From NCBI GenBank assembly GCA_035548815.1, contig DASZSF010000005.1, forward strand, positions 115,741 to 179,740: 64,000 nt of DNA. The letters run 5' to 3'. Positions 11,346 to 58,828 of the stretch are shown piece by piece (position 1 is the stretch's first letter; each line of letters opens with the position of its first letter). The notes under the pieces were generated by a model, which saw only the letters and a program-made list of their open reading frames with translations, was not told the DNA's origin and made no database searches. The stretch comes from Minisyncoccota bacterium (GTDB taxonomy: Bacteria > Patescibacteriota > Minisyncoccia > Phycocordibacterales > SBAW01). Made by a program: the position numbers and the translations under genes.

Positions 11346-11705
11346 ATGTTGCTTCTTCGACGAAACCGAAAAAACTACCTCAAACACAAAGAACTCGCGC
11401 GGGTGTTGGTGCATGCGCGGATTTTATATTTCAACCAGTTCTATAATGTGCCTCTGCGCAAGATCTTCATCAAAAATCACAAGTCGCGCTGGGGGAGTTG
11501 TTCCGAAAAAGGAAATTTAAATTTCAATTACAAACTCGCTTTCCTCCCACCGCATTTGGTCGATTACATTGTTGTGCACGAACTGTGCCATCTGCACCAT
11601 TTCAATCACTCGCCTTCCTTCTGGGCTTTAGTTGCGCAAACTTTGCCAAATCACAAGGCGCTGCGTTTGGAACTTAGAAGGCTTGAGCAACGACGTATTG
11701 CATAA
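11346..11705 (+). CDS. YgjP-like metallopeptidase (DUF45, HExxH), C-terminal half only; possibly truncated
   Basis: KSRWGSCS...NFNYKLAFLPPHLVDYIVVHELCHLHHFNHSPSFW; N-terminal about 100 aa of family missing. Confidence 0.55.
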   Translation: MLLLRRNRKNYLKHKELARVLVHARILYFNQFYNVPLRKIFIKNHKSRWGSCSEKGNLNFNYKLAFLPPHLVDYIVVHELCHLHHFNHSPSFWALVAQTLPNHKALRLELRRLEQRRIA

Positions 11706-11758
11706 AAAGAAAGCGCCGCTCGGGGAGAGCGGCGGGGAAGTTAAGGAAGGTGCAGGGT

Positions 11759-12217
11759 CTAGATCATGGCGTTCAGGATCCAGAGGCACGTGAGCGTGGT
11801 GACCCCGCCTTGTGTGTAGGCGCAGGCATGGGCGTCATATTCACGTAGCTCCTTCGGGAAGTCAGCTGGGACATCCGTCCGGTCGCGGATTTTGGTCTTG
11901 TCGTCGGCCGAGACCCACTTCCGGTTGATCCACGCCTGGATGATGCGAAGGTTCTTGGGATCACGCCGCCAGGTGGTGGGGCGGCACTCACCGTCGTGAC
12001 AGGGACAGTCTTGGTGCGGGAAGTAGTCCTGATAGTGGTCATGCACCCAGTAGTGCATAAACCCGTCGTCCCCCAGCATCCTGCCATCCCTGTCCCTGCC
12101 GGCTCTATCGACCGCCTGTTCGAGGCTCGTCGGCGCCTGCCCCAGCGTGTGGCGGGGCAACATCAGGCCAGGCAGCATCACGGCTGCGGGCAATGCGAGA
12201 AGCGATCTGCGAAGCAT
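11759..12217 (-). CDS. hypothetical secreted protein, high-GC foreign-looking gene (possible Tat/Sec signal, Cys/His cluster)
   Basis: about 62% GC with GC3-rich codons vs roughly 50% background; MLRRSLLALPAAVMLPGLM signal; HYWVHDHYQDYFPHQDCPCHDGEC. Confidence 0.5.
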   Translation of the reverse strand: MLRRSLLALPAAVMLPGLMLPRHTLGQAPTSLEQAVDRAGRDRDGRMLGDDGFMHYWVHDHYQDYFPHQDCPCHDGECRPTTWRRDPKNLRIIQAWINRKWVSADDKTKIRDRTDVPADFPKELREYDAHACAYTQGGVTTLTCLWILNAMI

Positions 12218-12384
12218 GTGCAACTCCCCTGAAATGCGGTTGGTCGGTCTATCCCTCCGTCTGTAAACTGAAGGCCCGTCTTTTTCTGTGTGTGCAGGCT
12301 ATGTTATTTGTACCAAGCTCATCCGTGGCGTCAAATAGCTGGCACTTCACCCTTTCTTTAGCTCAGCAGTAGTACGGTAAAGAG

Positions 12385-12720
12385 ATGGCAGATATCGTCA
12401 CGCGCGACCAATACTATTACCGCGGCTCGTTTATTGCGGGAATCATCAACACGGTGGTTGGAATCATCGAGCTTTTTTTGCTCATACGCATCGTACTCGA
12501 ACTTTTGGGGGCCAATGCCGCATCTCCTATCGTGGCATGGACCTATGCCGTGAGCAGCACATTTATGGGCCCATTTGTCGGAGCATTCCCTGGACTTTAC
12601 CTCACACAGAATTCTATTCTTGATGTTGTGGCAGTTGTTGCGATGATAGGCTACGCGCTTCTAGGCTGGCTCCTCATCGAACTTCTCGGTTTCATCGTCG
12701 GAACAGTGGAGAGGATTTAG
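12385..12720 (+). CDS. YggT-family small membrane protein
   Basis: 111 aa, 2-3 TM, LLIRIVLELLG... pattern of YGGT family; normal GC. Confidence 0.55.
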   Translation: MADIVTRDQYYYRGSFIAGIINTVVGIIELFLLIRIVLELLGANAASPIVAWTYAVSSTFMGPFVGAFPGLYLTQNSILDVVAVVAMIGYALLGWLLIELLGFIVGTVERI

Positions 12721-12850
12721 TCACTGTTTCGGCCTTGCATCCTTGCTATACATAGGAGTACTATCAGATTTAAGAGGAGAGTTTCATTCGCTCAACTCCG
12801 TGATAGTACACAGCCACATCTTTCTTCTCTCGAGCATAGGGGTTACACAG

Positions 12851-13258
12851 ATGACGAAGTTGATGGGACGCGACGCGATCCTGGGCATGGCCACGGCCGC
12901 GCCCACGGTGAGCAACAAGGACATCCTTCTGGCCGCCGCGGCCCTGATCGAGGCCCGCCTGCCCAACCAGCCCGCGTGGTACCGGTTCCACAGCATCGAG
13001 CGTCTCAAGGTCGGCGCGCAGCGCATGCAGCTGATCGAGGGCACCGTCCTGCAGACCCTCGCCGACGCGGCCACCCAGCTGGGTGCTCCGCTGAAGGTCG
13101 GCAAGAAGAGCAAGAAGACCAACGTCGGCCATGTCGTCGATCGCGGTCTGATGACCCTGGAGCAGGTCCATGGCTTCTCCTGTGGCTGCGGCGACGCGAT
13201 CACGGATGCCGACGCGGCCACCGAGATGCGCAAGGTCGCCGACGCCTGCACCACCTGA
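12851..13258 (+). CDS. hypothetical cytoplasmic protein, high-GC foreign-looking gene
   Basis: about 68% GC, nearly every codon ends in G/C; MTKLMGRDAILGMATAAP...; antisense ORF 12784..13365 judged spurious. Confidence 0.5.
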   Translation: MTKLMGRDAILGMATAAPTVSNKDILLAAAALIEARLPNQPAWYRFHSIERLKVGAQRMQLIEGTVLQTLADAATQLGAPLKVGKKSKKTNVGHVVDRGLMTLEQVHGFSCGCGDAITDADAATEMRKVADACTT

Positions 13259-13286
13259 TCGGCTGACGCCGAGATTCGACTTCGAA

Positions 13287-13320
13287 CCCCCGCCTTGCGC
13301 ACCACGCGAGGCGGGGGATC
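13287..13320 (+). terminator. GC-rich hairpin at end of high-GC islet
   Basis: CCCCCGCCTTGCGC-ACCAC-GCGAGGCGGGGG, weak T tract. Confidence 0.4.
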
Positions 13321-13350
13321 ATCATTTGTATAAAAATGTATACTTAGGGT

Positions 13351-13659
13351 ATGTATACACATCACTACGGGTTTGATACGGGCTGGTTTATGAATATTCC
13401 GATTTGGTCGGTTCCGTTTTTGGGATTGGCATTTTTAGCAGCGATTTGGTCGCTCGCATGGAAGGGCATAGCGCTCTGGCATGCAGGGCGCAATAACGAC
13501 GGCTGGTGGTTTATCGCCATTTTGCTCATCAACTCTGTTGGTATTTTGGAAATCGTCTATCTTTTCTTCGTTCTCAAATTGAAGTTCGAAGAAGTGTTCC
13601 CATTCTTAAGACGCGGGCCTCATCACCCTCCGCACCATCACAACCATCCTCACGCATAG
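13351..13659 (+). CDS. small 2-TM membrane protein with His/Pro-rich C-terminus
   Basis: HHPPHHHNHPHA tail; hypothetical. Confidence 0.4.
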   Translation: MYTHHYGFDTGWFMNIPIWSVPFLGLAFLAAIWSLAWKGIALWHAGRNNDGWWFIAILLINSVGILEIVYLFFVLKLKFEEVFPFLRRGPHHPPHHHNHPHA

Positions 13660-13692
13660 CTCTCATCCTCTTATCCACAGAGTGTTGTGTAT

Positions 13693-13713
13693 CTTGTGTA
13701 TTGCACACACAAG
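13693..13713. promoter_or_regulatory. candidate LexA operator / promoter element upstream of lexA
   Basis: CTTGTGT-ATTGCAC-ACACAAG inverted arms overlapping putative -35; TATAGT -10 at 13721. Confidence 0.3.
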
Positions 13714-13732
13714 AACGTGATATAGTTAGTGT

Positions 13733-14413
13733 ATGAACATCCAAAACTTGCTTACCTTTAAGCAGCAGAGGGTATTAAACGCTGTGCGTGAGTATCTATA
13801 TAAGGAAAATGAGTCTCCGACGCTCGAACAGCTTCGTGCGGAGCTCGGCTTCAGCTCACTCCGAACTGTTACGCAGTATTTGGATATCCTTGAACGCAAG
13901 GGTTATATCGTCCGCCGCAAAAATGCCGCGCGAAATATTGAATTGCGCAATGTTGACGGTGCGTGGGGCACGGTCAGCATCCCCGTTATTGCAAATGTTG
14001 GTTGCGACGACTTGTCTGTCTTTGCGCAGAGCTCAAGCGAGGCCGACGAGTTTTTGGAAGTCGACAAACGTATTGTTGAAGAAGACGACGGCGACATCGT
14101 TGCGGTGCGCGCCATCGGCGACAGTATGAATGATGCGGGCATCAACACTGGTGACTACGTGCTCATCCGCTTTACCAACGACGTGTCAAACGGCGACCGT
14201 GTGGCAGCGATAGTCAACGACATGGTCACGGTAAAAAGGTTGGAACGCCGCGAAGGAATGGTCATTTTGTGGCCCGAATCAAAGGACCCAAAGTACAAGC
14301 CCATTATCTTGAAGGATGACTTCACCATAGCGGGCAAAGTGCTGTGCGTTATCCCGAGCTACCAGATGGAGGTTACCGAGGTGGTGCCGCTCCCGGAAGA
14401 GGACTATCAGTAA
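13733..14413 (+). CDS. lexA: LexA repressor (S24 peptidase)
   Basis: N-terminal wHTH (TLEQLRAELGFSSLRTVTQYLDILERKGYI), S24 Ser (AIGDSMNDAGI) and Lys (VTVKRL); longer-than-usual linker. Confidence 0.85.
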   Translation: MNIQNLLTFKQQRVLNAVREYLYKENESPTLEQLRAELGFSSLRTVTQYLDILERKGYIVRRKNAARNIELRNVDGAWGTVSIPVIANVGCDDLSVFAQSSSEADEFLEVDKRIVEEDDGDIVAVRAIGDSMNDAGINTGDYVLIRFTNDVSNGDRVAAIVNDMVTVKRLERREGMVILWPESKDPKYKPIILKDDFTIAGKVLCVIPSYQMEVTEVVPLPEEDYQ

Positions 14414-14444
14414 TTAATTATTAAGTTTGGTATACTAGAGGCAT

Positions 14445-14645
14445 ATGGCAACAGGACAAATCAAAACATTAACGGACCGGGGCTTTGGCTTCATTACACG
14501 TGAGGGAGGTGATAAGGACCTCTTTTTCCACTCAAAAGAATTGAACGGCGTAGCCTTCGATGAGCTTAAGGTTGGAGACACGCTTTCGTTTGAAATAACG
14601 GATGGCCCGAAAGGGCCGAGCGCCGTCAACGTTTCGCGAGCGTAA
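14445..14645 (+). CDS. csp: cold-shock protein (CspA family)
   Basis: GQIKTLTDRGFGFITREGG...DLFFH RNP motifs. Confidence 0.92.
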   Translation: MATGQIKTLTDRGFGFITREGGDKDLFFHSKELNGVAFDELKVGDTLSFEITDGPKGPSAVNVSRA

Positions 14646-14654
14646 CCCCTTTTC

Positions 14655-15344
14655 GTGGTGCGAAAATTTTTCCATTTCAGCGTACTCATCATATTGTTTG
14701 CGGTACTCTGTGCTACCGCAATAGTGGGGTACATTGATGTCACGAGCGAAAAATATATCTATTTATCAAAAAAAGCGCCACCTGCCGAGGTGGCGCTTGT
14801 GCTTGGCGCGTCAGTGACGTCCCGCGGCGTGCTTTCACCGATTTTAAAAGAGCGTGCCGATATGGCGGCTGCGCTGTATCAAAGCGGTACCGTACGAAAG
14901 ATATTGGTGACGGGCGATAACGGCACGCTCACATATGACGAAGTGTACCCGGTGGGCAAATATTTGCTGGCGCTTGGCATCCCGCAGGACGACATATTTT
15001 TAGACTACGCGGGATTTGATACGTACAGCAGTATGTACCGGGCCCGCGACGTGTTCGGCGTTACGTCGGTGCTCATTGTTACGCAAAAATTCCATCTTTC
15101 GCGGGCAGTCTTCATCGCGCGCTCCCTAGGCTTAGAAGCGTATGGCGTGGATGCGGCGGCCCCGGGTGAACGCTTTTTCACCTTGTCGCTGCGCGAAATC
15201 CCCGCTTCGCTTAAGGCTTCATACGATGTGTGGTTCGGCCGCGTGCCTAAGTATCTGGGCGAGCAGTTTCCCGTATCCGGGAGCGGGGTACCTACCTGGG
15301 TTGGCGGCAGCTCACAGATGATATACTTCGGACATGGCCGATGA
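14655..15344 (+). CDS. SanA/YdcF (DUF218) family membrane protein
   Basis: N-terminal TM; KILVTGDNGTLTYDEVYPVGKYLLALGIPQDDIFLDYAGFDTYSSM; LIVTQKFHLSRA. Confidence 0.7.
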   Translation: MVRKFFHFSVLIILFAVLCATAIVGYIDVTSEKYIYLSKKAPPAEVALVLGASVTSRGVLSPILKERADMAAALYQSGTVRKILVTGDNGTLTYDEVYPVGKYLLALGIPQDDIFLDYAGFDTYSSMYRARDVFGVTSVLIVTQKFHLSRAVFIARSLGLEAYGVDAAAPGERFFTLSLREIPASLKASYDVWFGRVPKYLGEQFPVSGSGVPTWVGGSSQMIYFGHGR

Positions 15345-18067: not shown

Positions 18068-18496
18068 TCAGCAGTCGATATTGATCTGCCAGCGAACCTG
18101 GTCCTCGACGCTCACCTGCACATCCTCCTTGTCAGGGGAAGCGAGGATGCGGCAGCAGTTGGCGAAGCCGAGCGCCATACCGGCCTCGGCGACCATCAGC
18201 GGCCGGGCCGCATCGGTGCCCAGCAACCGGGCGACCTGCTTGCCCACGACCGAGTCGGGGTTGATGTCGACCATGACGCCGCGGCCGCGGCGCTCATGGC
18301 GGAGCACATCATGCCGGTGTTCCGGGGGCAACGCGTTCCTCACCGTGCAGCAGGGGCAGTCGGTCGACGCAGTCGCCGCGGCAGCTGCCATGATGGCCGC
18401 ATAGCCAAGCTTGGTGTCGGTGCGCATCGCATAGGCGAGCGCCGTGTCCGGCGTATCGCCGGCTTTCAGTCGAAGAAGTGCGCTTGGAAAGGACAT
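18068..18496 (-). CDS. hypothetical Cys-rich protein, high-GC foreign-looking gene, downstream of cooC-like ATPase
   Basis: about 63% GC; AGGGAG RBS 6 nt before ATG 18496; motifs DCPCC, FANCC, C-terminal C. Confidence 0.5.
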   Translation of the reverse strand: MSFPSALLRLKAGDTPDTALAYAMRTDTKLGYAAIMAAAAATASTDCPCCTVRNALPPEHRHDVLRHERRGRGVMVDINPDSVVGKQVARLLGTDAARPLMVAEAGMALGFANCCRILASPDKEDVQVSVEDQVRWQINIDC

Positions 18497-18582
18497 GAAC
18501 ATCTCCCTCTGGAGCTTCCGTTTGTTGGCGAACCTGCCAACGTGCCCTCCGCCATATATTTCGGAGGGCACGTTGACAACCT

Positions 18583-24065: not shown

Positions 24066-24905
24066 ATGCTGCTCGTTCGCACGGACATCGTCCGCATCCT
24101 CGCCTATATGGTCGGCTTCGCCGTGGGCGCCAAGCTTTCCGAGCTCTTCACCACGAACTTCCAGTGGTGGGCCGCGTGTATCGGCGCCGCCGTGGGTGGC
24201 GCTGTCGCCTACATCGCGTATGACCTGCGCGAAGTCCGCGACGGCCTGCTGCACGCGTACAGGCGCACCATCAACTGGACGCCGTATCGGCCGTACTGGA
24301 GGGCAGTCTTCGCCATGTGCGGAGGTTTTCTGTCCCTCATTTACACTGTGCTGACGGGCGTCATGATTCTGTTCGTCCCTGAGTTCATGCCACTTGGACA
24401 CATGGCCTGGTTCGGTCTCGCCATGTTCGTCTTCGCCACTGTTTTCGGAATCAGTATGGGATTCCTAGTGGTTCGCGATACGAAGCACGATGTTGGCTAC
24501 GTGGAGCATGGCTACTTCCGTCTGTGCAAGCTGGAGAGTGATGGTGTCGAGCTCAGGCGTACCGTTAATCCTGTGACGGCGGTCAGGTTCCTTCTGTCGC
24601 TCCTGAAGATCGTCGTCGTGGAAGCGCCGGGCCTCATCTGGTTCTTCGTGACCGGGACAGCGGGCCGTATGGCGCGCGGCGCTCGCGCAATCGCGCGCTT
24701 CGCCGTCGAGTTCATCGCCTACATCCACTCGAAGAACCGCGCGATCTGCGCGATGGACGTCATGTTCGGCGTCCTCGTCGGCGCTGCTCTGAGCTACACC
24801 TGGCTGGCGTTCGGCGTCGGCCTGCTCGTTGGGCTCGGCTTCGGCATCGTCCACGAACGGTACCTGGCGCCCAAGCTGCTGGCCTGGGCGACGGCGCGCC
24901 GTTAG
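24066..24905 (+). CDS. hypothetical polytopic membrane protein, high-GC foreign-looking gene
   Basis: about 63% GC; 6-8 TM; no family recognised. Confidence 0.5.
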   Translation: MLLVRTDIVRILAYMVGFAVGAKLSELFTTNFQWWAACIGAAVGGAVAYIAYDLREVRDGLLHAYRRTINWTPYRPYWRAVFAMCGGFLSLIYTVLTGVMILFVPEFMPLGHMAWFGLAMFVFATVFGISMGFLVVRDTKHDVGYVEHGYFRLCKLESDGVELRRTVNPVTAVRFLLSLLKIVVVEAPGLIWFFVTGTAGRMARGARAIARFAVEFIAYIHSKNRAICAMDVMFGVLVGAALSYTWLAFGVGLLVGLGFGIVHERYLAPKLLAWATARR

Positions 24906-32141: not shown

Positions 32142-32229
32142 GGAGGCGTCGCATAGTGGTCTAGTGCACACGCTTGGAAAGCGTGCAACCCGCAAGGGTT
32201 CGAGAGTTCGAATCTCTCCGCCTCCGCCA
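32142..32229 (+). tRNA. tRNA-Ser(GGA): tRNA-Ser (anticodon GGA), type II with long variable arm, CCA encoded
   Basis: acceptor GGAGGCG/CGCCTCC, anticodon arm CACGC-TTGGAAA-GCGTG, variable arm AACCC-GCAA-GGGTT, T-arm GAGAG-TTCGAAT-CTCTC, G73, CCA. Confidence 0.88.
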
Positions 32230-53767: not shown

Positions 53768-56700
53768 TTGCAACAGGGCAATCGCGATCGCGATATGCCT
53801 TTTTCTTTTTTACAACCAACAAAAAACACTGTCCCGCATGCGGGACGTTCTTTGTTGTACAAGGGAATAATTCTTGTACTCATGTGCGCACTCACATGTT
53901 CGTCTTTTTCAATTCCTGCACGTGCAGCGGGCGCTCCTCCGACGATTATTTCGTACCAAGGCCGTCTCACCGATGGAAGTGGAAATTTACTTGGAGATTT
54001 GGGCACAACGTACTATCTGAAATTTTCTATTTGGGATAGTCCGACCGTGGGTGCGGGTAATCGTGTGTGGCCAACGACAACAAGCGTTGCAACGACGAGC
54101 GTTACGGTGACGCAAGGCCTCTTCACCGTTAACATTGGCGACACTGCGAACGGATATCCAACTGCGCTTAACTTGAACGTCGCAAACAATACGCAGCTCT
54201 ATTTGCAGGTGGAAGTTTCTGCGGATAACAATTCGTCTGAAACGTTGTCTCCACGCCAGCAACTCACATCGTCCGTATTCTCGCTCCTTTCGAGTGCAGT
54301 TGTCGGTACAACGACACCGTCGCTCTTTGGAACCACAACCCCGATAGGTTCATCGTTCATCACAGCGCAAGCAACAAGCGCGACGTCCATCCCACTGACA
54401 CTTGCAGGCACTTCAGGACAGACAGCGAATCTTTTCCAAGTTTTGAATAATTCTCTTTCGAACTTGTTTTCGATATCCAGCAACGGTACTGTCACCTTTG
54501 CGACGCTGACGTCAGGTTTGCATGCAGCATCACCAAGCGGTGCTGTGTACTCTGCGGCGACATCATCGCTTTCACTGTCGGGACCGTTCTCCGGGTTTGC
54601 ATCGCTCGGCGCACTTGTCGGCGGTTCGAACTCAACGATAACGTGGACCGGCCTTGCAACGACATCACAACCATCATCAAGCAACCTGCTTGTTTCAAAC
54701 GGAGGAGCGGGTGTGTACGGCGTCGCAACATCGACGCTCACTGCGTCGTCGCCACTCACTGGATCATTCACTGTGCTGGGAAGCGGCGGAAGTTTGGGAT
54801 GCCAAACTGCAAACGGTTCGCAAGCAGGATGTCTTTCGTCGGCAGACTGGACGACATTCAACAGCAAATCGAGTTTTGCATACCCGTTCAACATTGCCGG
54901 AAATGCAACCTCAACACTGACACAGTTCAACGGGGGACTTACTGCGTACGCGTCAACAACCATCGGCAACGGCGGCCAAGGCAGTGGCTTGACCATCAAC
55001 GGAGGCGCGACGACAACAGGAAATGCATACGTGAACGGGAACCTTACGGTGGGCACTACGGGAGCACTCGTTGCAAGTGCAGGTAATATAGTTCATCAAG
55101 TTGGTAACTTCCAATTCTACAATTCTACCATTGTCGTTCCAAGCGGTGCCTCTATTATTCCAAGCAACAACATCAGAACGTTTACGTTCTATGGGAACCC
55201 AACCTATTCAACCGGCAACGGTCTGGATTTTACGGCAGGGGACCCGGGTAATGCAGTGACTGTAAGCGCTTCGACAAACTATGGTTCGCCCGATATGAAT
55301 GTATCCATCGCGTTCCTCCCTAAAGGTGCGGGCAACATCGGTATTGCTACCTCCTCGCCCTTCGCCAAACTTTCGGTCGCGGGTTCAGCATACATCGGAG
55401 GCAATCTGACCGCGACGGGCACTCTCGCGGTTGCTGGCATCAGCACGTTTTCGAGCAATATCGGCGTGGGCACGACCTCACCGTGGAAGATGTTGTCAGT
55501 GGGCACGGGCACCACCGGCACTTTCGTCATTGCAACCTCAACCGCAGGCTGCGCACAGTTCAGTGCTTTTGGTGAACTCTACTCGACGGGTTCAAACTGT
55601 GGTGGAGGATCGCTTACAGGTACCACCGGTCAGATTCCGTGGTTCAGCGGCACGAACACCGCAGTGGGCACATCATCGTTGTTCCTCAACTCGTCTACAG
55701 GGAACTTCGGCATTGGAACCACATCGCCGCTTGCGAAACTTGATGTTTTTGGCAACGTAACCTTGTCTGGCTCAAGTCGCTATTTGAACTTCGGCGCGAC
55801 CTCGACCGCCGGTATTGGTTCAACTGGCTATGGTCTTCGTGATAATGCCGGTGTCCTTGAGTTCAAGAACTCCGGTGGTTCATGGCAAGGTGTGTCATCG
55901 GTTGCAACAAGCGGACCGGCCTTCTCCGTGGATAAAAATGGCACTGACCAAACAATTTCAACAGCCACATATACACCTCTCACTTGGTCTCACGAAATCT
56001 TCGACACCAACAACAACTTCGACACGGGGACCGGCCGATTCACTCCAACAGTGCCGGGCAAGTATCTCATTAAGCTCAATGTGTACTGTGGCGCAGTTTC
56101 TAGCTGCTACGCAGGTATCGCAAAAAACGGTTCTGCCCTGGCAAACATAGTTTCGCAGACAGGCTCCCAAGGGAACGTCACCATTGCGACGGCGGTCGCT
56201 ATCGTCGACATGAATGGTACGACGGACTACATCGTAGGCGACGGCTATTCGGATGTAAGCACAACTATTGTTGGTACGGTTATCAATACCAACTTCTCAG
56301 GTGCTCTCATTGCCCCCGTCAGCGCGGGTACGGTCAACGGCACAGGTTCAAATGGTCAGATCACCTTCTGGAACAGTGCAAACTCAGCAACAGGCGACGC
56401 CGACTTCGTCTGGGACAGCACCAACAGCCGCCTTGGCATCGGCACCTCATCGCCATGGGCAAAGCTTTCGGTTGTTACGGATGCAACTACTGGTCCAGGC
56501 AGTGTCGTCGATGCAAGTTCAATCACGGACGGAGTGGGTCTGCGCCTTGAGTTCAATAGCTCAACGATGACCACCAACGGCCGTGTCTTCAGCATTGTCG
56601 ACAAAGCTTTCAACAGCACCTTCTTCGAAGTCAACGAAAACGGTCAGACCGGCATCCGCACCTTCGGCAACCTCGGTAGCAACTTCTCATCACTCACGGT

Positions 56701-58828
56701 TGCAACGGGCTTCGACAGCTTCACGGGCATCTCAGTGCGCGCCAACAGCGGTTCGCAGACTGGCAACTTGCAAGAATGGCAGGATTCGTCAGGCAATCCG
56801 CTGGTGGTTGTGGACCCGACGGGAAAGGTTGGCGTCGGTACCTCAACTCCTCACTGGAACCTCCAAGTCGCCGGCACGCGTCCGTCATTCGCGCTCTCAG
56901 ACACATCGGCAGGCACAAACTTGAAACACTGGGTCTTCTCATCGATGGGCGGCAACCTCTACATCGGTACCTCAACCGATGCGTTCGGCACGTCGAGCCC
57001 TGCAGTCTTCTCAATCTCAAGCACGGGTTCAACGACTGCAGCAAACGGCATCAACATCAACAACGGCTGCTTTGCTATCAAAGGTGCGTGTATCGGCTAC
57101 ACGGTGAAGCTTGCAGCTGTATATGCGACTTCGACTGCGGGTACGAATGCAACAGTCCAGTTCACCGGCGCACCAGGCAGTGCTCCGAGCTTTGCTACAG
57201 GGGCGCCGGGCACGCTCACCCTTCCATCCAACACCTCATATATTGTTGTTGAAACCCGCGGTGGTGGTGGCGGTGGTGGTAACAACGGTAGCACGAGCGC
57301 AATCAAAGCAGCCGGCGGCGGCGGCCAAGGTGGATACTCGCGCGCACTTATCAAAGCGCCTACCGGCACCTACAAGTACACCGTTGGCTTGGGCGGCGCT
57401 GGCGGTACAGGTACCGGAGCAGTAACAGGCACCGCAGGCGGCGCAAGCTGCTTTGGCACTAACGCAACCGCATGTACGTCGTCTTCAGTGCAAGCAGCGG
57501 GCGGTTCAGGAGGCGTTGGAACTAACTCTGCAGGAGCAATTTCAGGGGGCGCTGGCGGTTCGTCGGCAGCGGTAGGTACTGTCGGTGATTACGAAGAAGA
57601 CGGTGCTCCCGGAGGTGACAGCAGTGCAGCAACAAACGGTATCCAAAGCGGTGCCGGAGGCGGCCAAGGCGGAGGTCTCGGACGCACTACTTCAGGCAAT
57701 GGTAACCCTGGTATAAACGGCGGCGGCGGCTCAGGCGGCTTGCTTACAGCAGCAGCTGCTACACAAGAAACCGGCGGCAAGGGCGGCGACGGCGTCCTTA
57801 TCATATCCGTCTACGCAACGTCGTCTGCAAACGCAACAGGCAACGACTATGCTGAAATGTTCCCAGTTTCCGACTCGTCAATTTCTTCAGGCGACATCGT
57901 CGCAGTCGACAACACGACTCCAGTTTCGATGCGCATGGCACGAGGAGGCGAGCATGCGTCGCTTGCAGGCATCGTCTCAACTGCACCAGGCCAGATCCTT
58001 GGCGATGCGTCAGCACCAGGTCAAAAACCGATCGCGTTCTCTGGTCGCGTTCCGACCAAGGTCAACCTGGAGAACGGTCCTATTCATGTCGGTGACCGCA
58101 TCGCGCCGTCATTCGTTGCTGGGGTTGGTAAGAAGGCGGGTCCTCTGGATGACTCGGTCGGTATCGCGCTTGAAGCATACGATGGCACATCTGATTCCAA
58201 TCAGATATTGGTATTCCTCGATCTTCACCAAGGTATTGATATAAGCTCGCTTGCAGGACAGCTCTTCTCGTCCGAAGTGCTTCAGAATATATCAAGCTCT
58301 CTCCCTATTGATTCGACATCAACTTCTGCATCGATGCTCATGGGTACGACTAGCCCTGAAACAGGCACGGACTTTGTTGGCGCCATCTTTGGCGCCATCA
58401 TCGCTCGCATGCAAAACTTCGGGATCTTTATTACAAAAACGGCAACCCACATCACGACCCTTATGGTGAGTCACTTTACGGTCGGCTCGTCTGATGCGCC
58501 TGAAGGGATCACCATTTACGACAGACAAGGCCGCGCAGGGTGTCTTATTGCTGATGATGTAACAACAGGCAAGATGCAATTGCTTGAAGGCATGTGCGGT
58601 ACACAAACCGCGAGCGTAGGAAATGCTACATTGCAAGATGGCGGAGGAAATGACAACGATACTGGCACCAGCACGCCTGCTGTGGAGCCTATTGGCCAAA
58701 ACAGCAGCGACACCGCTACGAGCACGTCTTCTGATATAGGCGCTGGAAGCGACGAGCCTGCGACACCAGACACTCCAAGCGACACGGGCAACTCTGACAT
58801 GGCATCATCAACTGACACCGGAGTCTAG
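53768..58828 (+). CDS. giant (1686 aa) secreted surface protein with Thr/Ser/Gly-rich beta-repeats and phage tail-fibre-like glycine-rich domain
   Basis: signal peptide; YIVVETRGGGGGGGNNG...AAGGGGQGG...GLGGAGGTG glycine-rich segment; conserved C-terminal globular domain. Confidence 0.75.
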   Translation: MQQGNRDRDMPFSFLQPTKNTVPHAGRSLLYKGIILVLMCALTCSSFSIPARAAGAPPTIISYQGRLTDGSGNLLGDLGTTYYLKFSIWDSPTVGAGNRVWPTTTSVATTSVTVTQGLFTVNIGDTANGYPTALNLNVANNTQLYLQVEVSADNNSSETLSPRQQLTSSVFSLLSSAVVGTTTPSLFGTTTPIGSSFITAQATSATSIPLTLAGTSGQTANLFQVLNNSLSNLFSISSNGTVTFATLTSGLHAASPSGAVYSAATSSLSLSGPFSGFASLGALVGGSNSTITWTGLATTSQPSSSNLLVSNGGAGVYGVATSTLTASSPLTGSFTVLGSGGSLGCQTANGSQAGCLSSADWTTFNSKSSFAYPFNIAGNATSTLTQFNGGLTAYASTTIGNGGQGSGLTINGGATTTGNAYVNGNLTVGTTGALVASAGNIVHQVGNFQFYNSTIVVPSGASIIPSNNIRTFTFYGNPTYSTGNGLDFTAGDPGNAVTVSASTNYGSPDMNVSIAFLPKGAGNIGIATSSPFAKLSVAGSAYIGGNLTATGTLAVAGISTFSSNIGVGTTSPWKMLSVGTGTTGTFVIATSTAGCAQFSAFGELYSTGSNCGGGSLTGTTGQIPWFSGTNTAVGTSSLFLNSSTGNFGIGTTSPLAKLDVFGNVTLSGSSRYLNFGATSTAGIGSTGYGLRDNAGVLEFKNSGGSWQGVSSVATSGPAFSVDKNGTDQTISTATYTPLTWSHEIFDTNNNFDTGTGRFTPTVPGKYLIKLNVYCGAVSSCYAGIAKNGSALANIVSQTGSQGNVTIATAVAIVDMNGTTDYIVGDGYSDVSTTIVGTVINTNFSGALIAPVSAGTVNGTGSNGQITFWNSANSATGDADFVWDSTNSRLGIGTSSPWAKLSVVTDATTGPGSVVDASSITDGVGLRLEFNSSTMTTNGRVFSIVDKAFNSTFFEVNENGQTGIRTFGNLGSNFSSLTVATGFDSFTGISVRANSGSQTGNLQEWQDSSGNPLVVVDPTGKVGVGTSTPHWNLQVAGTRPSFALSDTSAGTNLKHWVFSSMGGNLYIGTSTDAFGTSSPAVFSISSTGSTTAANGININNGCFAIKGACIGYTVKLAAVYATSTAGTNATVQFTGAPGSAPSFATGAPGTLTLPSNTSYIVVETRGGGGGGGNNGSTSAIKAAGGGGQGGYSRALIKAPTGTYKYTVGLGGAGGTGTGAVTGTAGGASCFGTNATACTSSSVQAAGGSGGVGTNSAGAISGGAGGSSAAVGTVGDYEEDGAPGGDSSAATNGIQSGAGGGQGGGLGRTTSGNGNPGINGGGGSGGLLTAAAATQETGGKGGDGVLIISVYATSSANATGNDYAEMFPVSDSSISSGDIVAVDNTTPVSMRMARGGEHASLAGIVSTAPGQILGDASAPGQKPIAFSGRVPTKVNLENGPIHVGDRIAPSFVAGVGKKAGPLDDSVGIALEAYDGTSDSNQILVFLDLHQGIDISSLAGQLFSSEVLQNISSSLPIDSTSTSASMLMGTTSPETGTDFVGAIFGAIIARMQNFGIFITKTATHITTLMVSHFTVGSSDAPEGITIYDRQGRAGCLIADDVTTGKMQLLEGMCGTQTASVGNATLQDGGGNDNDTGTSTPAVEPIGQNSSDTATSTSSDIGAGSDEPATPDTPSDTGNSDMASSTDTGV

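Follow-up and report, generated by a model that had tools for sequence, protein, structure and literature searches.

We analyzed a stretch of 64,000 nucleotides (here termed the window) of contig DASZSF010000005.1 from a Minisyncoccota bacterium and found that four small genes, ORF1 to ORF4, form single-gene islets of high GC content in a genome of about 50% GC. The entire coding sequences of these islets, in the GC contents of the first, second, and third codon positions (GC1, GC2, and GC3) as well as in the encoded amino acids, match the composition of genes native to a 62 to 66% GC genome. The gaps that they occupy between core genes are variable slots whose cargo differs from genome to genome, and the islet genes are patchily distributed. 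According to the explanation that we favor, and to which we give about an even chance, the conserved slots accommodate single-gene flexible islets, and recombination exchanges their cargo within a gene pool of the Paceibacterota to which an unsampled source of higher GC content contributes.

The source genome is that of a bacterium of the candidate phyla radiation (CPR), namely, an Adlerbacteria-type metagenome-assembled genome of the Paceibacterota (Patescibacteria/Parcubacteria group). The organism is labeled Candidatus Paceibacterota by NCBI, and a genome scan with the neighboring LexA gene as the query returned 23 loci, 22 of which are related at 66 to 90% identity and derive mostly from Candidatus Adlerbacteria. 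A preliminary description of this DNA had suggested an epibiont and had given Saccharibacteria as the example; the organism is indeed a CPR bacterium but not one of the Saccharibacteria. In what follows, L001 to L035 designate related or compared contigs and loci, and genes of the window carry w numbers. CPR genomes are tiny, and how they gain and exchange genes, and what mediates their contact with hosts, is poorly understood. At the locus described here, accessory single-gene units enter or persist at a small number of fixed positions between core genes, with no recognizable mobile machinery and with a composition that does not decay.

Composition of the islets and integrity of the locus

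The GC3 values of the islet genes were compared with a background consisting of a greedy set of 64 open reading frames (ORFs) in the window, which has an overall GC content of 51.5%. Background GC3 was 0.558 ± 0.063 with a maximum of 0.673, and both ORF1 and ORF2, for which such a comparison had been proposed, fell outside that range. The four islet genes are as follows:

ORF1 (NCBI VG984_01530), 11759-12217, minus strand: 459 nt, 152 amino acids, GC 0.623, GC1/2/3 of 0.61/0.46/0.80, GC3 z = 3.8
ORF2 (NCBI VG984_01540), 12851-13258, plus strand: 408 nt, 135 amino acids, GC 0.674, GC1/2/3 of 0.64/0.47/0.91, z = 5.6
ORF3, 18068-18571, minus strand: same islet class, GC 0.649, GC3 0.81, terminator hairpin at the 3' end
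ORF4, 24066-24905, plus strand: same islet class, 279-amino-acid multipass membrane protein, GC 0.624, GC3 0.82, terminator hairpin at the 3' end

The z scores of the first two genes, which the preliminary description had singled out as high-GC islets, are far beyond chance. Its statement that almost every codon ends in G or C holds for ORF2 (91%) but is somewhat overstated for ORF1 (80%), and the foreign-looking composition that it noted extends to all three codon positions and to amino acid usage. Glycine, alanine, arginine, and proline (GARP) make up 0.31 to 0.35 of the residues in the islets versus 0.26 ± 0.03 in core genes, and phenylalanine, tyrosine, methionine, isoleucine, asparagine, and lysine (FYMINK) make up 0.17 to 0.20 versus 0.26 ± 0.05. 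These shifts in amino acid usage, GC1, and GC2 argue against selection on synonymous sites alone. The step in GC content sets in at the start codon and ends just past the 3' hairpin, and the 5' noncoding DNA is host-like (0.42 to 0.57). One codon usage signature is common to the four islets, which correlates better with L019 and L026, naturally higher-GC members of the clade (r of 0.74 to 0.90), than with core genes of the window (0.59 to 0.74); since this signature is largely a GC3 effect, it indicates compatibility with a higher-GC source and is not proof of one. ORF1 and ORF2 display the deviant composition and codon usage by which genomic islands are classically recognized.

It is extremely improbable that these genes are an artifact, i.e., that chimeric assembly or binning contamination brought in high-GC fragments or that the ORFs are noncoding or shadow frames. 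Positions 11531 to 15217 of the window, with both ORF1 and ORF2 and all junctions, match at 100% in the independent Logan assembly SRR12170511, in which the gene order is YgjP-ORF1-YggT-ORF2-DUF5652-LexA-CSD-DUF218, and the same gene juxtapositions are present in related contigs from other samples. Since this assembly reproduces every junction, the islets are not an assembly artifact, and the chimeric contig that had been envisaged earlier as a refutation was rejected. What can be said for an artifact concerns the reading frames. The strand of ORF2 is disputed by two gene callers, the one used in Logan placing the gene antisense, at L001:8687-9061 (+) and L035:2047-2448 (+), equivalent to window 12770-13171 (-), and the Prokaryotic Genome Annotation Pipeline (PGAP) placing it on the plus strand; in addition, long antisense ORFs exist, as GC3-rich DNA would give. 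However, the pattern GC1 > GC2 << GC3 and conservation across genomes favor the annotated frames of ORF1 and ORF2. Genes or shadow ORFs on the opposite strand were rejected, as the antisense frames are less conserved and without domains (Pfam gave nothing at E < 0.05, a level well below its gathering scores), and so was structured RNA or tRNA, as Rfam and tRNA searches found no family or tRNA over the islets.

Variable slots and patchy distribution

The minimal arrangement MliC-DUF5652-LexA is found in L005 and L010, and other genomes add YgjP, YggT, DUF1428, and assorted larger genes. The slot between YgjP and YggT contains ORF1 in the window and a nonhomologous high-GC gene encoding 99 amino acids in L008 (L008:4829-5128; GC 0.60); it is empty in L009, where about 45 bp lie between YgjP and the conserved YggT leader. 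The slot between YggT and DUF5652 contains ORF2 in the window and, in L009, a nonhomologous high-GC gene encoding 83 amino acids with its own hairpin, at L009:2355-2606(-). ORF3 has homologues in its slot between YibE_F and w18583 at L009:8733-9191 (-), with 76% identity and a GC3 of 0.82, and at L021:19102-19470 (-), with 30% identity. For ORF4, the slot after w23216 contains a homologue at L005:19297-20145 (+) with 27% identity and a GC3 of 0.79, the flank being at 72%, and the slot is empty in L008 and in L006; the core proteins of L006 and L005 are 87% identical. The same slot is thus occupied by different or highly diverged cargo, the arrangement that defines replacement-type flexible islands.

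Two observations concern the neighbors of these slots. The DUF5652 membrane gene lies directly upstream of the gene for the LexA-like repressor (13351-14413), the two form a conserved pair in Adlerbacteria, and the variable slots are located just upstream of it. The YgjP-like gene at L009:1537-1882 aligns to the protein of the window as two overlapping segments, each in another reading frame; this suggests a frameshift, due either to a pseudogene or to a sequencing error.

The distribution of ORF3 and ORF4 was assessed within the sampled Adlerbacteria loci, and the global protein database searches covered ORF1 and ORF2. ORF1 and ORF2 occur together in L001, and ORF1 is also found in L002, L003, and one JGI contig; both are absent from the other 22 loci (L004 to L026), i.e., from 21 Adlerbacteria-type relatives and the distant L026. 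Among the sampled loci, ORF3 is common only to the window, L009, and L021 and ORF4 only to the window and L005. ORF1 and ORF2 consequently show the patchy distribution typical of genomic islands. According to the preliminary description, high-GC homologues conserved vertically across the lineage would speak against transfer; such homologues do occur, in the same slot and with high GC, but this is true of only one or two sister lineages, and most of the 22 sampled relatives lack them. The window, L001, L004, the group of L005, L006, and L010, the pair L007 and L008, and L009 are about equidistant (67 to 72% core amino acid identity). Since these near-equidistant lineages provide a different islet partner each time, the patchiness of the islets does not fit one tree.

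The evidence for recombination tracts comes from one close pair, L007 and L008, and not from the window itself. Over L007:5200-6260 and L008:4290-6270, a mosaic of approximately 1 kb with 72 to 90% identity spans the 3' end of YgjP, a high-GC islet gene, and YggT; the flanks are 94 to 100% identical, and there are indels of approximately 370 and 570 bp that correspond to extra segments in L008. This mosaic tract points to recombinational exchange in the region.

Replacement-type flexible genomic islands, in which the same locus carries divergent cargo between strains and GC content is persistently atypical, are known from marine Alteromonas and Prochlorococcus. The islets resemble them in their conserved flanks, in cargo that differs or is far more diverged, in variable presence, in unconverged composition, and, as far as the pair L007 and L008 is concerned, in mosaic tracts that extend into the flanks. 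They differ in that (i) each is one small gene followed by a terminator of its own and not a multigene cluster, (ii) the GC deviation is upward, by about 12 to 16 points, and not downward, and (iii) the host is a reduced CPR bacterium and the cargo consists of small proteins with Cys motifs, secreted or unassigned, and not of glycosylation genes.

Age of the copies and origin of the high GC content

Copies of the islet genes in the same slots are themselves GC3 outliers, namely, ORF2 in L001 (0.905; z = 7.3), ORF3 in L009 (0.82; z = 6.5), ORF4 in L005 (0.79; z = 5.6), and ORF1 in L001 (0.61; z = 2.7). At codons for the same amino acid, codon identity between copies was close to that predicted from codon usage (z of 0.3 to 3.1 in the islets versus -0.1 to 2.5 in the flanks), and the residual codon identity was 0.03 to 0.31 in the islets versus about 0.1 in the flanks. 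Since this residual identity resembles that of flanking core genes, synonymous sites are essentially saturated, and the copies are old and not recent arrivals. The GC3 of core genes tracks that of their genome (for LexA, 0.64 in the window and 0.44 in L001), whereas that of ORF2 does not (0.91 and 0.905). A rough estimate of neutral amelioration, in which the decay per lineage was equated with the square root of residual identity, gave a GC3 of at most 0.59 to 0.71 for genes inherited from the common ancestor, compared with the 0.80 to 0.91 observed. A single ancestral transfer that has not yet ameliorated therefore does not fit, which leaves two courses: renewal of the copies from a high-GC pool once the lineages had split, or maintenance of their composition.

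The explanation that we favor takes the former course. Each of the four islets is a self-contained unit of one coding sequence and its own 3' hairpin that sits in a fixed gap between Adlerbacteria core genes, and its cargo would be gained and replaced horizontally. Likely routes would be homologous recombination via conserved flanks or the uptake of DNA that is then inserted illegitimately beside a host promoter, and the source would be a gene pool that circulates among Paceibacterota, including an unsampled lineage of higher GC content. The high GC content would then be the signature of the donor pool, renewed by turnover, and not the decaying trace of one old transfer.

The latter course corresponds to vertical inheritance with an actively maintained high GC content, which we consider rather doubtful. 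The islets would be ancestral in their slots and would have been lost many times, and a force specific to these genes, such as selection acting on the composition of mRNA or codons or a GC bias of local origin, would hold them at about 65% GC and a GC3 of 0.8 to 0.9 in opposition to the mutational equilibrium of the genome. The occurrence of homologues in the same slots (with distant ORF1 relatives loosely placed after PadR-PspC), the saturation of synonymous sites to the level of the flanks, the decoupling of the GC3 of ORF2 from that of the genome, and the excess of GC3 over the amelioration estimate are all compatible with such maintenance, as are the flank-like identity of ORF3 between the window and L009, the confinement of the GC step to coding sequence and hairpin, and the fact that no donor was found. 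However, there is no known mechanism that holds a few genes at high GC in a bacterium of about 50% GC, and the processes that might do so were individually rejected or disfavored: (i) translational selection for GC-ending codons points the opposite way, since the highly expressed cold-shock gene CSD has the lowest GC3; (ii) a drift of weakly constrained genes to high GC is at odds with the fast-evolving core genes w20529, w21843, and w22362, which are 44 to 71% identical to their orthologues and retain an ordinary GC3 (0.51 to 0.55); and (iii) GC-biased gene conversion is disfavored by YggT, which lies between the islets and inside the recombining tract and yet has a normal GC content. Furthermore, the shift in amino acid composition is not expected from selection on synonymous sites, and the patchy distribution demands many independent losses. 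We regard it as unlikely that an Adlerbacteria-type CPR bacterium actively holds small, fast-evolving genes with Cys motifs in fixed slots at about 65% GC beyond synonymous saturation while others are at 44 to 57% GC3. This would mean a gene-specific process that is distinct from donor residue, from translational selection, and from ordinary GC-biased gene conversion, and to our knowledge no such GC-maintaining process has been described in bacteria. An actively maintained composition would call into question the usual practice of dating horizontal transfers by GC deviation.

The preliminary description had favored Actinobacteria-like donors. In this case, a high-GC host of that kind would have passed the genes to its symbiont too recently for amelioration, which we consider very unlikely. 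CPR bacteria are generally epibionts, and the composition of the islets fits a donor of 62 to 66% GC at all codon positions; the ORF3 family, a distant part of PF20704 with a range from Actinobacteria to Cyanobacteria, also agrees with this proposal, and the islet cargo may thus ultimately be of mixed and ancient origin. It received no support for ORF1 and ORF2, however. No homologue from Actinobacteria or from any other non-CPR organism was found for either gene in protein, profile, NCBIfam, Pfam, or plasmid searches; relatives of ORF1 are located on Paceibacterota-like contigs; and divergence from the homologues in sister lineages is so advanced that synonymous sites are saturated. Moreover, Actinomycetota were rare donors to Patescibacteria in one survey (PMC12455944): approximately 83% of the detectable single-gene transfers into Patescibacteria were intraphylum, and 1 event involved Actinomycetota. 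This survey agrees with the explanation that we favor.

The carriers of the ORF1 family, whose taxonomy was deduced from gene content and synteny and not from named records, point to the Paceibacterota. All five readable contigs with members of this family (L028, L029, L032, L033, and L001, which contains the closest homologue) have Paceibacterota-like neighborhoods, and a loose synteny PadR-PspC ... SelR is common to them and the window. For example, the order in L032 is PadR-PspC-(ORF1-like)-x-SelR-MaoC-BipA and that in the window is PadR-PspC-MliC-YgjP-(ORF1) ... SelR. In a small Adlerbacteria sample, homologues were found for 20 of the 41 genes on L032 and L033. The GC3 of the family member equals that of its host in L032 (0.67 versus 0.67) and is near it in L028 (0.71 versus 0.75), and the members in L033 and L029 are about 2 standard deviations above host composition. 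If the cargo comes from an unsampled higher-GC pool of Paceibacterota, the slots would be convenient markers of gene flow within the phylum.

Several observations weigh against an exchange of cargo within such a pool. (i) The donor lineage was not found, the closest homologues of ORF1 and ORF2 being those in sister Adlerbacteria or on Paceibacterota-like contigs, and in the sampled clade members of higher GC content (L019, L012, L013, L017, and L026) none of the four genes is present within ±10 kb of LexA. (ii) The closest relatives of ORF1 (59% identity) have a lower, not a higher, GC3 than the copy in the window. (iii) The identity of ORF3 between the window and L009 (76%) is comparable to that of its flanks (66% and 77%), and its synonymous saturation is also flank-like, so that codivergence fits at least as well as independent acquisition. 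(iv) The noncoding DNA upstream of the islets is host-like, which implies that the inserted fragment was essentially promoterless or that its 5' part has since been remodeled. (v) No integrase, tRNA, target-site duplication, shared boundary motif, or repeat was found at the islets. Short repeats were at chance level, and the sole tRNA of the window is at 32142.

A number of other candidates for a mobile origin were examined and rejected. An origin from a phage, a plasmid, or a defense system was discarded, as there were no matches in IMG/VR, INPHARED, PLSDB, PHROGs, or PADLOC except for a weak match of ORF4 to a PHROG without assigned function (phrog_27351; E = 8e-4). The islets have no paralogous copies and no repeats resembling insertion sequences (IS) in the 64-kb window; diversity-generating retroelements, IS, and miniature inverted-repeat transposable elements were set aside on the basis of this lack of second copies, with no search aimed at reverse transcriptase. 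Compared with integrons, the 3' hairpins of the islets are short perfect stems of the terminator type, and the islets are dispersed singly. A candidate target-site duplication, the direct 11-nt near-repeat TTGCATAAAAA / TTGTATAAAAA at 11698-11708 and 13326-13336, brackets ORF1-YggT-ORF2; it is probably fortuitous, given that other genomes also have YggT as a conserved resident gene at this position. A 5' leader shared by ORF1 and the L009 islet gene, ATTTCAGGG(G)AGT, was unsupported by blastn-short or pattern searches.

According to the model of Lawrence and Ochman, horizontally acquired islands reportedly show a GC and GC3 deviation that is followed by amelioration. The islets are similar to such classical islands in their sharp compositional deviation, patchy distribution, and accessory function, and they are different in that no integrase, tRNA target, direct repeats, or donor was found and in that the deviation is undecayed despite saturated synonymous sites between copies. 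With the transfers within Patescibacteria surveyed previously (PMC12455944), they have in common that single genes are concerned, that the relatives are mainly other Patescibacteria, and that divergence is old; in contrast, donor-recipient pairs were established by phylogeny in that survey, and recurring high-GC single-gene slots were not described there.

Products of the islet genes and neighboring features

The elements that surround ORF1 and ORF2 are as follows:

11714..11734, minus strand: intrinsic terminator of ORF1, CGCCGCUC-UCCCC-GAGCGGCG then CUUUCUUUUU
12218..12345, minus strand: 5' leader/promoter region of ORF1, GC about 0.50, host-like, ending at the conserved YggT leader (CTTCACC.TTTCT)
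12385-12720, plus strand: YggT-like core membrane gene between ORF1 and ORF2, GC 0.50, GC3 0.56
12721..12850, plus strand: 5' region of ORF2, AT-richer, GC 0.446, AGGGG 9 nt upstream of the ATG
13284..13320, plus strand: 3' stem-loop of ORF2, GC-rich stem of 13 to 16 bp, weak U tract, AUCAUCAUUUGU

Its substitutions relative to the L001 copy (pN 0.26, pS 0.80, pN/pS = 0.32) indicate that ORF1 is a real gene under purifying selection. As described earlier, it appears to encode a secreted protein with a Cys/His cluster: the N terminus resembles a signal peptide, and the His and Cys residues of the cluster do not vary within its family. When 1.84 billion representative proteins were searched with a profile, this family was found to comprise at least 84 clusters of small secreted proteins with the invariant residues H54, H58, Y61, F65, C70, C72, G75, C77, R78, P79, A128, H129, C131, and C143. 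No source supplies a name for it, and ORF1 thus defines an unnamed family of secreted Cys/His proteins. The AlphaFold2 (AF2) model, with a predicted local distance difference test score (pLDDT) of 83, has a beta-barrel core. As a lead, the product is most likely a small secreted protein composed of a helix and a beta-barrel in which the 3 invariant His and 5 invariant Cys residues may form a metal site and/or disulfides. In being small and secreted and in having a predicted beta-barrel core with conserved His and Cys residues, it is similar to CusF-type periplasmic Cu(I)/Ag(I) chaperones and to small beta-barrels of the oligonucleotide/oligosaccharide-binding (OB) or cold-shock type; no significant similarity in fold or sequence to CusF-like metallochaperones was detected, and no structural relative of the family was found.

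Three homologues of ORF1 with approximately 59% identity are located in the same neighborhood, flanked by MliC or YgjP and, at the opposite end, by YggT or DUF1428. The limit of the ORF1 leader was derived from GC bins and from the alignment with the empty YgjP-YggT slot of L009, and a Shine-Dalgarno-like GGGGAG motif can be read 8 nt upstream of the ATG at 12217. The terminator scan assigned 8 pairs, 7 of them G-C, and a U tract to the ORF1 terminator (fold of -15.8 kcal/mol; z = -3.8).

ORF2 is a genuine gene whose near-orphan product, a small and mostly helical protein, evolves fast and has the conserved C-terminal block VGHxxDRGLMT...FSCxCGxAI. Its only detected homologue, L001:8639-9019(-), is 46% identical (tblastn E = 8e-33, compared with 6e-12 for the antisense frame) and has the same orientation and slot, immediately upstream of LexA; it has a GC content of 68% and a GC3 of 0.905, and the genes of L001 average 0.43. 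Substitutions between the two copies decrease in the order third, first, and second codon position (0.43/0.37/0.30), and the ratio of nonsynonymous to synonymous substitution rates (dN/dS) is high, at about 0.8. No relatives beyond L001 were found in 5.8 billion proteins, in JGI metagenome contigs (two scans), or among viral contigs, plasmids, and phages, and ORF2 had no match in Pfam, NCBIfam, PHROGs, PADLOC, or the PDB. Because of the antisense call in L001 and L035 in Logan, the protein search returned only the query itself; wrong-strand calls in GC3-rich genes thus hide homologues from protein databases. A looser DNA pattern for ORF2 had a single match in metagenomes, L034, which is a fragment of RpoC and was dismissed as chance. 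The single-sequence AF2 model (pLDDT 45) is too low for use.

ORF2 is situated just upstream of the DUF5652-LexA genes. The GC-rich hairpin that had been noticed at the end of this islet is indeed present 3' of ORF2, and ORF1 has one too. The hairpin of ORF2 has a 13-bp stem at about 13287-13317 (inverted repeat I4), and the 90-nt region around it folds at -40.7 kcal/mol (z = -5.7); it was missed by the terminator scan, which needs a T-rich tail. The gene between the two islets was likewise correctly recognized as a yggT-like gene of normal GC content. It scores 23.6 bits against Pfam YGGT (gathering score of 27), precomputed PF02325 matches exist for the identical gene in L035 and for an orthologue on the JGI contig, and orthologues with 57 to 66% identity are present in L003 and L006 to L009.

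Profile scores place ORF3, as a distant member, in PF20704 (SCO5389 family of NCBIfam), which is reported from Actinobacteria to Cyanobacteria (PMC9710616). With a gathering score of 27, the L021 copy reaches 29.7 bits (E = 6.5e-7), and ORF3 of the window and its L009 homologue score 18.8 and 18.2, respectively. ORF3 contains the motifs CPCC and NCC. The SCO5389 family had once been entered in AntiFam, as a shadow ORF, before it was reinstated. Inside ORF3 there are palindromic segments at 18535-18578 (44 nt; 86% self-complementarity) and 18271-18299 (30 nt; 93%). In the slot after YibE_F, where the window has ORF3, L001:3515-3826 (+) and L006:14273-14536 (+) carry a small Cys-rich high-GC gene (M.KK..CGGCPPCC..C), which had no family match and looks like a precursor peptide or a metal-binding peptide.

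Finally, the segment 57203-57754 of the window (552 bp; 61% GC) lies within an ORF of 1,686 amino acids at 53768-58828 (GC3 0.54) and represents a local domain and not an islet gene.

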